A DNA stretch of 64,000 nucleotides from an uncultured Lentisphaeria bacterium (GTDB lineage Bacteria > Verrucomicrobiota > Lentisphaeria > Victivallales > UBA1829): assembly GCA_949282305.1 (NCBI GenBank), contig CASDPB010000131.1, forward strand, positions 9,405 through 73,404, given 5' to 3'. Positions 19,352 to 46,829 of the stretch are shown piece by piece (the first letter of the stretch is position 1; every line of letters starts with the position of its first letter). The notes below the pieces were generated by a model. That model did not search any database and was not told where the DNA came from. It saw nothing but the letters and a program-made list of their open reading frames with translations. The position numbers were made by a program, and so were the translations under genes.

Positions 19352-21712
19352 TCATAGTTCCGGGTGCAATTCCAGAATCTTTTCACGACGGTTCAGCGCT
19401 TCCCAATCGTCCCGCTGCCAGACTTTTACATAGTCCACGAGAAAGTCGTAGGGGAGTTTACCGTGTTCCACCAGATAACCCCCCCAGCCGCCGATTTGTA
19501 CACAGAGCTTCAGATAGACAGGCACACTTGGAACTGAAGGGCTATCCCAAATTGCAACGGGTTCCCCATTTAAGTACCAAGTCAGTTTCCCCGGTTCCCA
19601 AAGGATTCCGCAGGTAATGAAACCGTTTTTGTCGCGTGCCGCATAAAGGCGGTTGAAGCCCATCATTTTGTGTTCCTTCATTGCAGAGGTGGCCCACCAG
19701 TGACAGGCGATATTGTTTCGATGCGGTCCGAATCGTCCGGGTTGTTCAAAAATGTCAATTTCCGTACCTCCGAGAATCGTGCGGCGGCGGTTTGCACTGC
19801 CGCGCCCATGGTCAGGCATTGCCCAGAATGCCGGCCACAATCCGTGCAGGGTTACCGGTCGCAGTCGTGCTTCAAAGTAGCCGTAACGTTGAGAGAATTT
19901 ATCAAAACTGGTCATGCTGCCGGACGTATATTCCCGGAAATAGCGTTCATCCGGGATATTGTCATCAAAATAACTGATTTTTTTTTCTGCGCGAATATGG
20001 AGCATGCCGTCTTTTACGAGTAAGTTACGGGGACTGTAGTTGCAGAGCAGTTTCGGATTGGTGACTGTCCAGCTCCAGCCGGATGTCCACAATTCCGGAT
20101 TGATCCGGTTTTCGTGGAATTCCTCATTCAAAGTCTGTTTCCAATTTCCGGGTACCGGCGGTCTCTTGCCGCTCCATTCCGGCATAGTGACAATGCCGGA
20201 AACAGCTTGTGCCTTTTCCAACACCAGCGGTTTGTCTGCTGCGATTGCCAGCGTAAGGACATCCTCATTCCAAAGAGGTGAGCCGCCAAAGGATTCTGCC
20301 ACCTTGGCACGTTCATTTTCCGCATCGCTTCCTTTGGCGCGGGTGTCAGTACTGGCAAGGCGGCAGATCCAGGGAGACCGTCCTCTGAAATTTACCTCAA
20401 CCGTTGCCCTGGAATATGGGGGAACTACAATCTCCTCATACACGCTGTTTTGTTTTGTACATGTTTGCGCACCCGATACAAAACAAGTGACATTGACTGG
20501 GTTTACTCCGGGGTTATGGAGCAGGAAGTGGACGCGGTCATAGGCAGAAAGATCCCAGCGACAGCCTTTCGGTTTCAACAGAAACAGCCCGCTGTCTTTA
20601 TGAAAATCCAGTTCAAGTGCGCCGTTTCGTGTTGCCGACTTTACCTTTCCCGGAAAATCCAGTGGTCTTCTGGAGGGATAAAGCATGCCGTCTTCTGGTA
20701 CAATATTGAAGCGGACGCCCGGCGGTAGATCACCTGAGTTGCCTCCAAGTTTTGCATAGGTTAACTCTAAATGCCGGAATTGTTCCGGGGTATCGGTTTC
20801 AATCAGGATGCGGGCAATTCTGGACGGATTGATAACATAGCCGAAATCGGCATTTCCTGCGAAGTGAATACGAAATGGAATGGGCGAACCGCCTTGCGGA
20901 TTCAGTATTTTCTTGACGCAAATTTCCGGTTCATTGATGCGGCGGGTATTATCACGGACTGTGATTCGGACCGGTATTGCATTTGCGGATTTTACCTGAA
21001 AGCCGAGCTCCAGATAGCCGTATCGGGAAAAATCGCATTCTCCGTGCTGTGGGTGAAGCACCAGCCGCCGGTCCATAGGCGTTTTATGAAAGAGAAAAGG
21101 CAGCGAGTCGCCTTTGATAGACAGCATAGTTGCAGTGTAATCACTGCCAGCATTGCGAAAATGATATTTCTCATAGTTTTGGAGAACTGCTACATTGATC
21201 CTGGAAAAATAGACGCATCCCGCCGCTTCCTGCAATCCTACGCAGATTTCAACCTTTTGCGCATTGTCTGGAATCATTGCCCGGATTTTGCATTTCCGCC
21301 AATCATAACTGCCGTATTTGTCCTTTTCCATATCGTTGTAACGAACTGTTCCGTCATTATCTTTGATAACCAGCATTAATTTGATTCCTTTATATGGTTT
21401 ATCTGGTCGTTGAACTTTTTCCGCTTTGATTTCCGCGGCCAACTCAATGGTGCGCCCACGTACCTGTTCGATTGCCAATGGAAACCATAGCTGGCGACTT
21501 TTGGAAGCCTCGGGATTGACAACCCTGATAACATTTTGTCCATTGCCTCTGGCGTCCGGCAGAAATTCCGCATTCTGAGCGCAACTCCATTTCGACAATT
21601 TTTCCGATGTTCCCGCTAAATCCTTTTCAAGCGTGGAGAATTCCGGTTCCGCACTTCCCGGCATCGGTAAGAGAGCAAGAGCTGCCAGAAGCTTGAGAAT
21701 CATTTTTTTCAT
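19352..21712 (-). CDS. secreted multi-domain GH16 glycoside hydrolase with N-terminal CBM-like modules
   Basis: Signal peptide; C-terminal GH16 motifs YTSG, YGYFEAR, WPAFW, EIDIFE (ExDxxE), W.PGKLTWY.NG, VDYVKVWQ. Confidence 0.88.
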   Translation of the reverse strand: MKKMILKLLAALALLPMPGSAEPEFSTLEKDLAGTSEKLSKWSCAQNAEFLPDARGNGQNVIRVVNPEASKSRQLWFPLAIEQVRGRTIELAAEIKAEKVQRPDKPYKGIKLMLVIKDNDGTVRYNDMEKDKYGSYDWRKCKIRAMIPDNAQKVEICVGLQEAAGCVYFSRINVAVLQNYEKYHFRNAGSDYTATMLSIKGDSLPFLFHKTPMDRRLVLHPQHGECDFSRYGYLELGFQVKSANAIPVRITVRDNTRRINEPEICVKKILNPQGGSPIPFRIHFAGNADFGYVINPSRIARILIETDTPEQFRHLELTYAKLGGNSGDLPPGVRFNIVPEDGMLYPSRRPLDFPGKVKSATRNGALELDFHKDSGLFLLKPKGCRWDLSAYDRVHFLLHNPGVNPVNVTCFVSGAQTCTKQNSVYEEIVVPPYSRATVEVNFRGRSPWICRLASTDTRAKGSDAENERAKVAESFGGSPLWNEDVLTLAIAADKPLVLEKAQAVSGIVTMPEWSGKRPPVPGNWKQTLNEEFHENRINPELWTSGWSWTVTNPKLLCNYSPRNLLVKDGMLHIRAEKKISYFDDNIPDERYFREYTSGSMTSFDKFSQRYGYFEARLRPVTLHGLWPAFWAMPDHGRGSANRRRTILGGTEIDIFEQPGRFGPHRNNIACHWWATSAMKEHKMMGFNRLYAARDKNGFITCGILWEPGKLTWYLNGEPVAIWDSPSVPSVPVYLKLCVQIGGWGGYLVEHGKLPYDFLVDYVKVWQRDDWEALNRREKILELHPEL

Positions 21713-21808
21713 GTTTTCCTCCCATGTTGAATTTAAAGCTTTTTATTTGTGAAGTCGTTCTTTTTCCAGCGAATATGCTTTTGTTCTGAGGTCTGTTCCG
21801 CTGACGGT

Positions 21809-22864
21809 TTACAGATCGCCCCATTCCCCGCTGTACCAGAAAGTAGCGCCTTCCTGACTGCACCAGTAATTTTCCGGTATTTGGAGTGCGGATAATGCTT
21901 TCACATGACCATCCACAAAGGTATAATTGCCACCGGAACGGTTGAGATGCCGCCAACGCGGGATCGACGCATTAGCGTTGATGTCAAGCTTTCTGCCGCA
22001 GTCCGGTCCCCACCACTGAATGATTTCTCCGTCTTTGATCCCGCGGTCACAGTCACCGAAGAACATGCGTTGCGATGGATGTCTGACCCGATCAAGTGCA
22101 GCCTTGAATTGTTTCGGTTTGGTAACGCCCCAGGAGTCTGTGTAATTGTTGATTCCGTAATGCGACGCATAGGCGGAATACCGGGCTCCGCGCGGCTGTT
22201 GGGCAGGACAGCGGGTGATACCGATACAGTCCCAGTTGCTTTTTCCGACCTGTTGGACATAGATGGTTTCGATTGTTGGCCAGGTATGGTTCCCCGGTTT
22301 CAGCATGAAATAAATAACGTCAAGCCATGTTGTATGCAAGTCATTCCTTAAGTTGAAGTCAGCTGCTGGTATGATACCGTTGTTACTGTCAATGTACTGC
22401 GTCATTCCGCTGAAAAGTTGTTTCTGGTTGTTCATGCAGCCTATGTCTTTTGCCTTGTCCCGTGCCTTGGACAGTGCGGGCAGGAGTATTGCCGCTAAAA
22501 TCGCGATGATTGCAATCACGACGAGGAGCTCTATTATAGTGAAAATTTTTATTTTTTCTTTGCAAGGTAAAAATATCGAACAGGGGACTCTGAAGGACGA
22601 AGTAGAAAAACATTTGAACAATGGAACATTTGAATGAAGAAAGAAGATACGAGGCAACTCCGGGATTGTCGACTGTGTCCTCTTTGGGAGATTGTTCCGT
22701 GTCGCGCAGTATGATTGAGACTCGCATTGCGGTGATACCATCCCCTCTCTTCGGCAGAATGGGAACATTATATTACCTCTGCCATGCTTTCTGCTTTTTC
22801 CTTCCGGTTCCGTCAAGACAGGAAATTCACGGTTGTCAGCCGACTTTTTCACTCTTTTCATCAA
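21809..22864 (-). CDS. prepilin-type N-terminal / H-X9-DG domain protein (DUF1559-like) with long N-terminal extension
   Basis: [62 protein letters not shown] before TTG-ATG at 22864/22861. Confidence 0.85.
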
Positions 22865-45813: not shown

Positions 45814-45830
45814 TTTCTGTTCCTTTCCTG

Positions 45831-46829
45831 TTATATTTTTCTGATGATTGCTTTCGAGCAGACGATCCGTTCCAGATCGCCGGTCTTGTCCATTTCCCCG
45901 ACAAGGGCTTCCGTTATCTCCTCGACCGCATGTTCCGCCGAGGAGATCGGGAGGTAATGAGTCCTGACCGCGTGGATGTTGTTGAAGCCGGCGACGAGGA
46001 CGTCGGTTCCGACCCTGCGCCCGGTTTCCATCAGATACCGGACGCCGCCGACGGCAAAGTAATCGGAAAGATAGAAGAAACCGGAAATGGACGGATCCTG
46101 TTCCAGCGCCTCCCGTGTCTTTTCATAGCCGATCTGCGCAAAGGTGTCGATGTCGTCATGCTCCTTGAGATCGCCGAGATTCACGTAATAACGCTCCAGG
46201 AGCTCCTGTTCCTGCGCTTCCGGGAAAATCCGCTTCAGCCCCTGGAGCCGTTCGCTGTTGGCGGGATGCCCCAGGAAAAAGCGGAAATTCGACCTGCCTT
46301 CGCGCAGGAAGAAACGGATGATCTCTTCACAGGAGTCGGAGAGATCCTGCACGATGTTCCGGTGGAAGGAGGTCACATAGCCGATGACGGTCTTTTTGTG
46401 TTTCAGGATTTCCTGCTCCACTTTCCTTCCGCCGACGGGATCGCCGATTGCGATGAAACAGTCCACACCCCGGTTGACCAGGTCCCGGACGGTTTGAAGA
46501 TTTTTCTCCTCGCTGTCGCTGAGAGTTACCAGGTAGGCGCCGTATCCTTTCAGTTCCAGCTTGTCCAGCAGCCGGATAATCATCGCCTGAATGTGTTCCT
46601 CCAGCGTGATCCGGTGCATGCCGAGCAGGACGCCGACGGTCCGCGTTTTGTCACCGCGGAGGAGCTTGTGCCCGAAATTCTGCTTGTAGCCGAGTTCGGA
46701 GGCGAGGGCGAATACACGCCGGCGTGTCTCCTCGGAACTGAAATCGTTCGCCTTCCGGTTCAGTATCTGCGAAACCGTGGACTGCGAGAGTCCCGCCCGT
46801 TCCGCAATGATTTTCAACATGCCAGCCAT
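45831..46829 (-). CDS. LacI-family regulator
   Basis: [39 protein letters not shown]. Confidence 0.92.

Follow-up and report, generated by a model that had tools for sequence, protein, structure and literature searches.

Bacteria of the Planctomycetes-Verrucomicrobia-Chlamydiae (PVC) group encode prepilin-like proteins of the DUF1559 family (PF07596, with an H-X9-DG C-terminal motif). In the accessible portions of two reports, their function is described as unknown or guessed as solute binding, with 68 paralogues counted in Planctopirus limnophila, two of which are essential, and 74 in Rhodopirellula baltica (PMC10632474, PMC2754498). Here, we examine proteins of this kind in a stretch of 64,000 nucleotides (hereafter designated as the window) from an uncultured, gut-type Lentisphaeria bacterium of the order Victivallales (GenBank assembly GCA_949282305.1, contig CASDPB010000131.1, positions 9,405 to 73,404 of the forward strand). 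An initial interpretation made from the DNA letters alone, hereafter the sequence-only reading, had proposed that three prepilin-like genes in the window each belong to a cassette with a regulator and a large secreted carbohydrate-active enzyme (CAZyme). The genome-wide analysis reported below indicates that this adjacency is far beyond chance, and that the window contains three of roughly 85-118 such modules in the genome. Literature searches on DUF1559, H-X9-DG and the prepilins of Lentisphaerae or Victivallales found, in the portions of these publications that are accessible, no link to glycan enzymes.

The closest described relatives of the window proteins are the pseudopilins of type II secretion systems (T2SS), namely GspG and the minor GspH, GspI, GspJ and GspK, together with type IV minor pilins. 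Features common to both include a phenylalanine and a glutamate at positions 1 and 5 of the mature protein (F+1 and E+5), a long hydrophobic helix and, as far as weak structural matches go, a pilin-like model. The cognate machinery is encoded in the same genome, where one prepilin-like gene directly follows a GspK-like gene. Unlike these pseudopilins, the window proteins have about 230 mature residues, compared with 143 residues in total for the GspG of this genome; they belong to a set of 142 scattered copies placed in regulated operons of their own with an enzyme, mostly lack the glycine at position -1, and score far under the cut-offs of the GspG and GspH models. The genome has separate GspH/I/J/K-like genes, and the window proteins are by sequence distinct from those subunits. 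They can be assigned, loosely, to the DUF1559 family: the cassette 2 protein passes the Pfam cut-off, 92 matches to the family were found in the genome, and 83 of the 142 proteins carry the C-terminal motif, whereas the proteins of cassettes 1 and 3 fall below the cut-off. In the loci sampled from other Verrucomicrobiota and from Planctomycetota, the next gene is mostly small or missing; here, by contrast, DUF1559 proteins are accompanied by a regulator and by a large glycan enzyme that is secreted.

Filament subunits and pilin-type signal peptides have been associated with sugars in several organisms. Minor pilins with lectin modules occur in Streptococcus sanguinis, and type IV pili of Caldicellulosiruptor and Ruminococcus bind xylan or cellulose. 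In Archaea, the bindosome of Sulfolobus comprises sugar-binding proteins with class III signal peptides, which are true ABC solute-binding proteins encoded beside transporters. The present proteins resemble those of the bindosome in having pilin-type signal peptides on proteins proposed to capture sugars; they differ from them in their pilin-like model, in the lack of a solute-binding fold among the structural matches listed, and in having an enzyme as neighbour. We know of no case of about one hundred separately regulated pilins each encoded beside an enzyme. Within the PVC group itself, pili-like fibres of Planctomycetes bind gold-labelled dextran, thus offering an example of a type IV-like filament that binds a polysaccharide; the fibre subunits are not named in the available excerpts of that report (PMC5394234). 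In these glycan-binding fibres and pili, unlike the situation described here, one or few pilins are encoded at one pilus locus.

Comparison can also be drawn with the SusC/SusD polysaccharide utilisation loci of Bacteroidota, which similarly combine a sugar-responsive regulator with a glycan enzyme at many loci of differing specificities. In contrast to these, the cassettes have three to four genes, no transporter, and a pilin-fold protein as the recurring non-enzyme part, in a genome with no Plug domain, SusD itself not having been searched. In cultured Lentisphaerae (strains WC36 and zth2), according to the available excerpts of one study, laminarin raises the expression of "secretion system-related" genes and induces filamentous particles, read as phages by the authors, and ExbB, the energizer of TonB, is absent from both genomes (PMC11361711). 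For WC36, our first-look count of PF07596 candidates is only 18.

Genome-Wide Distribution of Prepilin Modules

The genome to which the window belongs amounts to 4.36 Mb in 132 contigs and is 96% complete. Genes were called by a home-made program based on codon usage, which yielded 3379 genes; 15 prepilins were added by a hand-rule and one overlapping gene was removed. Prepilins were retrieved by a regular expression for the class III motif, which misses variants, such as one orthologue at a locus of a relative (L113), and signal peptides were called by a hydropathy rule. This procedure identified 142 prepilin-like open reading frames (ORFs), in which the motif is nearly always followed by 205-290 residues. 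PF07596 gave 92 matches at E<=0.01 among 166 first-look candidates, mostly restricted to profile positions 2-60.

The genomic context of these ORFs is strikingly uniform. Where a downstream gene exists, it lies on the same strand in 134 of 140 cases and within 100 nt in 105, and its median length reaches 755 aa, compared with 297 aa for genes that follow other genes. Closely following genes of at least 600 aa were found after 72 of 105 prepilins versus 184 of 1506 other genes (Fisher p 7e-37), and a same-strand protein of at least 450 aa occupies position +1 or +2 for 118 of the 142 prepilins. On the upstream side, the same-strand neighbour belongs to a single LacI/GntR-PBP regulator family for 69/142 prepilins versus 46/3141 other genes (p 3e-71); when AraC proteins are counted, a regulator is present at position -1 or -2 for 93 of the 142. 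Full triads made of a regulator, a prepilin and a large partner number 85/142, and Fisher p values across all adjacency tests range from 3e-71 to 8e-36. Seen from the regulators, 80 of the 127 members of the LacI/GntR-PBP family and 12 of the 48 AraC proteins are sited in prepilin modules. The sequence-only reading had proposed a genome-wide adjacency count as a check on its three cassettes, and this count clearly went in its favour. The data lend support to a dedicated association of every prepilin with its own cassette.

The Three Cassettes of the Window

A Pfam scan found every part of the three cassettes where the sequence-only reading had placed it (Table 1). All three prepilin-like genes have a LacI-, GntR- or AraC-type regulator upstream and, downstream on the same strand, a gene for a signal-peptide protein with glycan domains. 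The short distance that had been reported between prepilin and enzyme, below 100 nt, was also recovered, with gaps of 96, 37 and 20 nt in cassettes 1, 2 and 3, respectively; the regulator precedes the prepilin by 3 nt in cassette 2 and 17 nt in cassette 3. In cassette 1, the AraC gene is divergent from the operon, from whose first ORF, starting at 24200, it is separated by 114 nt. As had been claimed, no transporter was detected by Pfam inside the three cassettes. Their neighbours are housekeeping genes (TrpE, RibBA, RibD, FtsY and PdxJ) and, on the other strand, an EamA transporter gene, and none of the cassettes belongs to a larger sugar locus. No other prepilin-like ORF occurs in the window; two more are found on the same contig, outside it.

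Table 1. Genes of the three cassettes, with positions and strands given for the window.
Cassette	Feature	Position	Strand	Supporting matches
1	AraC-family regulator	24315-25223	+	Pfam HTH_18 91.3 bits, HTH_AraC 62.5 bits, AraC_binding 31.2 bits
1	ORF of 429 aa, first gene of the operon	22911-24200	-	no Pfam match at E<=1
1	Prepilin-like protein 1, DUF1559-like	21809-22552	-	class III motif; SBP_bac_10 17.8 bits and N_methyl 16 bits, both below cut-off
1	Secreted GH16-domain protein, 786 aa (partner 1)	19352-21712	-	Glyco_hydro_16 E 3.2e-10, residues 570-745; clear signal peptide
2	Regulator	26365-27552	+	GntR HTH 36.8 bits; LacI-type sugar-binding Peripla_BP_3 61.8 bits
2	Prepilin-like protein 2 (DUF1559), 252 aa	27556-28314	+	SBP_bac_10 30.8 bits (cut-off 23.3); TIGR02532 20 bits, above cut-off
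2	Secreted LamG-CBM9 protein, 1168 aa (partner 2)	28352-31858	+	Laminin_G_3 53.7 bits and CBM9_1 35.5 bits, above cut-off
3	LacI-family regulator	45831-46829	-	LacI 39.3 bits, Peripla_BP_3 41.3 bits
3	Prepilin-like protein 3, 271 aa	44998-45813	-	N_methyl 20.7 bits; TIGR02532 21.5 bits (cut-off 16.3)
3	Secreted LamG-CBM9 protein, 1034 aa (partner 3)	41873-44977	-	Laminin_G_3 29.2 bits, above cut-off; CBM9_1 and CBM9_2 below; signal peptide

The description of the three partners as CAZymes holds in so far as each has a recognised catalytic or carbohydrate-binding domain. These domains are GH16 in partner 1, LamG and CBM9 in partner 2, and LamG, with CBM9 below cut-off, in partner 3; partners 2 and 3 have no Pfam catalytic domain. 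The C-terminal 718 aa of partner 2 have no Pfam match at E<=1, including to the DUF4091 domain (now GH123_cat) that the sequence-only reading had assigned to it; a protein language-model lead to GH123_cat/CBM9 clusters (0.87-0.93) is all that speaks for this assignment, and points to a probably GH123-like region. Nothing useful was found in Pfam at E<=1 for the C-terminal part of partner 3, and the TIM label given to this enzyme by the sequence-only reading is putative. Homologues of this part occur in two further partners of prepilins (E 6e-67 and 5e-59), and partner 2 is a distant one (E 6.5e-10). A complex prediction for the cassette 1 pair (GH16 protein residues 22-786 with prepilin residues 28-247) gave a score of 0.07 against a mark of 0.32 and, having been run without controls, counts neither way.

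Two genes of cassette 1 deserve further description. In prepilin 1, the class III motif forms residues 108-128 of a long ORF and begins near 22543. No in-frame ATG, GTG or TTG occurs within about 65 codons upstream of the motif (region 22530-22870, - strand), and a TTG is found in another frame just before runs of A near 22535-22560. This may reflect a single-base error of the assembly, a genuine frameshift or an atypical start. By its language-model features, the 429-aa ORF that opens the operon resembles unnamed PVC protein clusters (0.95-0.96) and bears a faint likeness, scored below 0.85, to alpha/alpha-toroid glycan enzymes. An extra gene of 400-1100 aa before the prepilin is also present in other AraC-type modules of the genome.

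Partner Proteins

When a partner was taken to be the next gene on the same strand, no more than 150 nt away, 113 were obtained. They fall into 50 clusters, including 40 singletons, and the prepilin modules are therefore not copies of one amplified module. Signal peptides were predicted in 89 of the 113 partners, compared with 692 of 3138 other genes. The most frequent Pfam families at E<=1e-5 were DUF4838 (12), Laminin_G_3 (9), CBM9_1 (9), Beta_helix (7), GH42 (6), GH123_cat (5), Pect-lyase (4) and CBM_4_9 (3), and single partners matched GH5, GH28, GH38, GH106, a GH84-type NAGidase, a BNR sialidase-like protein and heparinase II/III. In all, the partners matched 42 + 24 Pfam families, among which glycan families dominate. 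A control set of 71 genes, drawn from 19 random 20-kb regions and roughly length-matched, although shorter (median 584 aa versus a partner mean of about 740 aa), matched 158 families. With the tallies of both sets restricted to the 25 commonest families, 23 of the 25 were housekeeping or general in the control (tRNA synthetases, Fer4, AcrB, MutS, AAA_5, HD), and glycan-related matches amounted to GH42 in two genes and a sulfatase at least once.

A random sample of 20 partners comprised 12 proteins with glycan-related Pfam domains, five without a Pfam match at E<=0.001, all of them large (497-1182 aa), and three others, namely a NERD-UvrD helicase, a xylose-isomerase-like TIM barrel and a Peripla_BP_2 protein. 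Non-glycan partners of these types were located at L072:9699-11537 (helicase), L051:6596-7549 (Peripla_BP_2) and L054:1025-1906 (TIM barrel). A few partners are transport parts (SBP_bac_1, BPD_transp_1 and MFS_2). Small partners number 24; behind 15 of them lies a large gene on the same strand, and three are second prepilins in degenerate form. The latter (genes C13_74, C21_58 and C53_62) lie between a prepilin and a large enzyme.

No common sorting signal was found in the 87 large partners, with a C-terminal hydrophobic helix in 2/87, a PEP motif in 0/87 and a lipobox in 3/87. Judging from their sequences, the partners are predicted to be Sec-exported without an anchor of their own. Many of them bear carbohydrate-binding modules, such as CBM9, LamG and CBM_4_9.

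Sequence and Fold of the Prepilin-Like Proteins

The N-terminus of these proteins has the hallmarks of class III signal peptides, with F+1 in 141/142, E+5 in 142/142 and a lysine or arginine within the eight preceding residues in 137/142. TIGR02532 (cut-off 16.3) is passed in cassettes 2 and 3, cassette 1 not being listed, and the N_methyl scores of the window proteins in Pfam (16-20.7 bits) remain just below the cut-off of 21.2 bits. NCBIfam models revealed N-terminal similarity only to GspG, ComGC and GspH: GspG/GspH scores of 20-28 bits compare with cut-offs of 80-89, and GspH was matched at 20.8-23.1 bits over residues ~4-34 only (cut-off 80). The GspI, GspJ and GspK models of NCBIfam matched none of the window prepilins, nor did the H-X9-DG model at E<=0.001. 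For PF07596, passed by cassette 2 only, cassette 3 has no match at E<=0.01. A C-terminal motif of the His...DG type was searched genome-wide as a histidine, 8-10 residues, and DG followed by H or S; inspected by eye, it has longer spacers in cassettes 1 and 2 and is degenerate in cassette 3.

The sequence-only reading had described common ends and unrelated middles, and a broader alignment bears this out. In 118 aligned paralogues, the N-terminal helix with E+5, two cysteines and one histidine near the C-terminus are near-invariant; over their whole length, these proteins are about 30% identical to that of cassette 2, with most of the identity falling within the helix. Compared with each other, the variable parts give mostly noise (median 20 bits); relative to the proteome, Tyr (2.1x), Trp (2.0x) and Asn (1.7x) are over-represented in them, and Glu and Leu are scarce. 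Over the first 26 mature residues, identity reaches 80% at the protein level but 71% at the DNA level, and the same codon is used at only 42% of the conserved residues. The N-terminal helix is thus under purifying selection at the protein level. Gene conversion through the conserved 5' end was ruled out, given this 71% nucleotide identity and the fact that only 0.07% of the pairs exceed 90%.

An AlphaFold2 model of the cassette 2 prepilin, built from the paralogue alignment, has a pLDDT of 71.7 and a pTM of 0.72, with a long helix (residues 13-63) and confident C-terminal strands (174-177, 215-220 and 225-229). In a VIA search against 48,161 representative chains, 20 of the 21 best matches were type IV pilins or pseudopilins (Z 3.0-4.7), including PilA4, PilV, EpsG, a type IVb pilin, ComP and PulG. 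Six non-pilin rows occur among the top 32, all of them inositol-monophosphatase-type enzymes and none above Z 3.0. Foldseek likewise returned type IV pilins as best matches, at E about 1, and a profile search of PDB sequences produced matches confined to the pilin N-terminal helix. Because the Z values are low, the modelled fold is called pilin-like and is not proven. No solute-binding fold was found among the 50 listed VIA matches or in the Foldseek list, although the variable part, modelled with low confidence, could differ. A bindosome-type reading, with solute binding by these proteins, was demoted to a minor rival on account of the fold matches listed, none of which is a solute-binding protein, and of the restriction of PDB matches to the pilin helix.

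Secretion Machinery and TonB-Dependent Transport

The sequence-only reading relied on a shared machine of the T2SS or type IV pilus kind and had called for its core genes to be located. They were identified on contig C31 (19565-30624) as a gspD-E-F-G-H-I-J-K-like operon encoding a secretin (795 aa), an ATPase (529 aa), GspF (290 bits), GspG (150.6 bits, above cut-off) and GspH/I/J/K-like proteins. The prepilin directly after the GspK-like gene is of the DUF1559 type and is itself followed by a gene for a 407-aa signal-peptide protein. Genome-wide, there are 8 secretin ORFs, 9 T2SSE ATPases and 3 Peptidase_A24 ORFs. Searches for the Plug domain returned 0 matches in this near-complete genome, the same search being positive in the control Bacteroides thetaiotaomicron, and thus no TonB-dependent or SusC-type transporter was found. 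The genome therefore combines many secretin-type outer-membrane channels with no detected TonB-dependent transporter.

Across 31 relatives, the number of first-look PF07596 candidates varies from 2 to 374 per genome, and GspG is present in 26. When the genome of the window is included, 23 genomes have 16 or more PF07596 matches; GspG was found in all of these but one, which is 78% complete; the other relatives without GspG (G016, G021, G028 and G029) have 0-11 matches. This co-occurrence is consistent with a T2SS dependence of the PF07596 proteins, as far as gene content can suggest it, and falls short of proof, since related genomes are not independent.

Conservation in Related Genomes

Orthologues of enzyme 2 were identified in five other Lentisphaeria, each with an ORF of about 400 aa and a prepilin directly upstream. 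Identities for enzyme, prepilin and regulator decrease from 86%, 83% and 90% to 80%, 65% and 74%, and down to 53%, 35-36% and 27-30%, respectively. Since triads are kept across orthologues, the module is inherited as a unit, within which the enzyme has changed more slowly than the prepilin and the regulator. A search of 150 other genomes of the order detected homologues of the GH16 partner in 11, with coverage of residues ~220-782.

Whether the pairing extends to other lineages was examined with 80 public loci, using taxon labels from record titles and a crude ORF rule. Loci with less than 1.5 kb downstream were dropped (Lentisphaeria 6/36, Verrucomicrobiota 2/28, Planctomycetota 2/9 and others 3/7). 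A large same-strand ORF follows the prepilin at 17/30 loci in Lentisphaeria, compared with 2/26 in other Verrucomicrobiota and 2/7 in Planctomycetota. In other Verrucomicrobiota, the following ORF has a median length of 131 aa and is on the same strand at 19/26 loci. The expansion of these prepilins in PVC bacteria, put forward by the sequence-only reading, calls for a qualification: in the loci sampled, the pairing with a large enzyme is a Lentisphaeria feature that is atypical of Planctomycetota and of the other Verrucomicrobiota. Victivallis vadensis DSM 14823, which is in culture, has the triad at locus L174, with a 403-aa ORF, a prepilin (4848-5747) and a 687-aa ORF (5773-7836), and 272 first-look PF07596 candidates were counted in its genome.

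Co-Variation within Modules

Co-diversification of the prepilin with the enzyme or with the regulator was rejected, as Mantel tests on 60 modules were not significant. The partner that goes with the closest prepilin paralogue is a homologue in 10 of 113 cases versus 2.9% expected, a weak excess, and in 26 pairs of strongly homologous enzymes the prepilin heads are unrelated (median 23.5 bits). Cassette 3 offers a probable example of a swap. Compared with module C8_31 (contig C8, L004:16708-19397), its regulator scores 222 bits and its prepilin 160 bits, with variable parts 44% identical, and its enzyme only 18 bits: the C8_31 enzyme is a 689-aa beta-helix protein unrelated to that of cassette 3. 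Based on these similarities, regulator and prepilin appear to have been redeployed as a pair alongside another enzyme. Taken with the non-homologous partners and the unrelated heads, this swap would favour specificity of the prepilin for the glycan over specificity for the enzyme fold. That prepilin similarity does not track enzyme similarity counts against a simple model of enzyme-fold recognition.

Possible Functions of the Prepilin-Like Proteins

In the reading that we prefer, each cassette would be a self-contained operon made of a sugar-type regulator (either LacI/GntR with its sugar-binding domain or AraC in divergent orientation), one DUF1559-type protein of pilin fold and one Sec-exported, anchorless glycan-active enzyme. 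The pilin-fold protein would act as a specialised minor subunit of the T2SS/type IV filament machinery, and would be produced only once its glycan is sensed. Its conserved N-terminal helix, with F+1 and E+5, would take it to the inner membrane and then into a (pseudo)pilus built on the single GspG, thereby placing the hypervariable Tyr/Trp/Asn-rich head where pilins are surface-exposed. There, the head, whose composition would suit sugar binding, might bind the glycan cut by the co-expressed enzyme, or its fragments, so that substrate and enzyme would be kept together at the envelope of a bacterium devoid of TonB-dependent (SusC-like) importers. Starting from the architecture of the cassettes, their enrichment and conservation, the computed pilin-like model, the machinery and the lack of Plug domains, we infer regulated expression, cleavage, filament assembly, glycan binding by the head and a role in uptake. 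That these proteins are glycan-specific minor filament subunits appears to us quite possible, if somewhat short of an even chance.

A more ambitious form of this proposal, close to that of the sequence-only reading, is a pilin-based polysaccharide utilisation system, in which one T2SS/type IV machine would be equipped with more than 100 separately regulated, interchangeable heads, each induced with one enzyme by one glycan. The filament would capture that glycan and, by extension and retraction through a secretin, bring the glycan or its fragments to the envelope, or export the enzyme, replacing SusCD/TonB. The adjacency, the machinery and the lack of Plug domains support the sequence-only reading in part, its mechanistic core, a swappable tip or adaptor in the place of SusCD, being a proposal. 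As a whole, we hold this wider scheme to be unlikely.

Several observations weigh against the glycan-specific subunit that we prefer. Overall, no correlation was found among the similarity matrices of the three components (prepilin, regulator and enzyme), and the argument for regulator and prepilin travelling together rests on two or three pairs. Tyr, Trp and Asn richness is common in many extracellular proteins, the variable head was modelled at low confidence, and the fold matches are weak (VIA Z below 5, Foldseek E about 1). As many partners have their own CBM9, LamG or CBM_4_9 modules, a separate glycan binder is not obviously needed. A prepilin lies directly upstream at only 8 of the 16 GH16 homologue loci, 16 of the 142 prepilins lack both regulator and large partner, and the gene calls, signal-peptide calls and prepilin retrieval are crude methods. 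Finally, Gly-1, which classical prepilin peptidases need, is present in only 6 of the 142 proteins; the corresponding stretches of the window are 22530-22560, 27556-27600 and 45740-45813.

This last point is also what an uncleaved protein would predict. The prepilins may not be filament subunits at all, but bitopic periplasmic proteins of the inner membrane that act as sensors, folding helpers or binding proteins feeding oligosaccharides to shared importers, the last of these roles being analogous to that of membrane-tethered solute-binding proteins. Some partners are indeed ABC or MFS transporter parts, and the Pfam name SBP_bac_10 refers to solute binding, as does the description of the family in the accessible portions of PMC2754498. 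Yet Gly-1 is likewise missing from the canonical GspG and GspI/J-like proteins of this genome and from aligned relatives, so that the peptidase of this lineage probably accepts other residues; the missing glycine looks like a lineage trait of the peptidase-substrate pair and suggests, on sequence grounds, a Lentisphaeria prepilin peptidase of unusual specificity. Together with the invariant E+5, a model that matches pilins with no solute-binding fold among the matches listed, and similarity to solved structures only in the pilin helix, this makes the bitopic protein a distinctly improbable option. A still lower rank is given to adjacency without dedicated function, in which the prepilins would have been copied along with regulator-enzyme modules or would play a general role in the envelope. 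The uncorrelated matrices and the 16 isolated prepilins agree with it, as does the usually small following gene in other Verrucomicrobiota and Planctomycetota; an enrichment with p down to 3e-71, the diversity of partners (50 clusters, 40 singletons), triads kept down to 53% enzyme identity and in V. vadensis, and purifying selection on the N-terminus render it very improbable.

If the proteins do enter a filament, their ligand could be the enzyme instead of the glycan. In this reading, which is the main rival to ours and a strong one, each prepilin might be a cargo-specific secretion adaptor, that is, a minor pseudopilin that recognises its own periplasmic enzyme and loads it on the T2SS pseudopilus, enabling more than 100 unrelated enzymes to leave via one machine without a common signal. 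Such a role would account for the one-to-one pairing at gaps of 20-96 nt in the window and within 100 nt for 105 of the 134 same-strand pairs genome-wide, for Sec-exported, anchorless partners with no common motif, for the DUF1559-type prepilin and partner found at the end of the gsp operon, and for the co-inheritance of prepilins with enzymes (35-83% and 53-86% identity, respectively). With a single GspG-based T2SS and no TonB importer, moreover, large glycans must be met outside the outer membrane. What lowers the adaptor to a somewhat unlikely candidate is that related prepilins mostly have non-homologous partners (homologous in 10/113), that strongly homologous enzymes are found with unrelated prepilins, and that cassette 3 and C8_31 combine the same regulator and prepilin families with different enzymes. 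Some partners are also no secreted enzymes, such as the NERD-UvrD helicase and the MFS and ABC transporter parts, and half of the GH16 homologues lack an adjoining prepilin. E+5 distinguishes body subunits from a GspK-like tip, and its retention in all 142 proteins fits the former over the latter. The enzyme might otherwise be held by the head at the cell surface, with the prepilin in a short fibre or pseudopilus serving as a one-enzyme scaffold. Anchorless partners (C-terminal helix 2/87, lipobox 3/87), one-to-one pairing with co-inheritance, and a variable head that the pilin-like model would expose on the filament are compatible with such a tether; prepilin and enzyme, however, do not co-vary, and we regard it as decidedly improbable.

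Biological Significance

Type IV filament subunits seem to have been drawn into sugar-regulated operons about a hundred times, with one subunit for each enzyme, and there is a real chance that this represents a polysaccharide utilisation system of a new kind. In PVC bacteria, the DUF1559 family ranks with the largest groups of paralogues, and its tie to glycan operons gives a testable clue to its function. Since the triad occurs in the cultured V. vadensis, it is open to work at the bench. In addition, the modules point to many large secreted proteins that may be new glycan enzymes, a quarter of those sampled (5/20) having no Pfam match, and the linked regulator of each candidate may report its inducer. 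It thereby becomes a concrete question by what route Lentisphaeria of the gut and the sea gain access to glycans from host and diet and break them down, and the pilin-based utilisation reading, if true, would provide a first function for the DUF1559 family.

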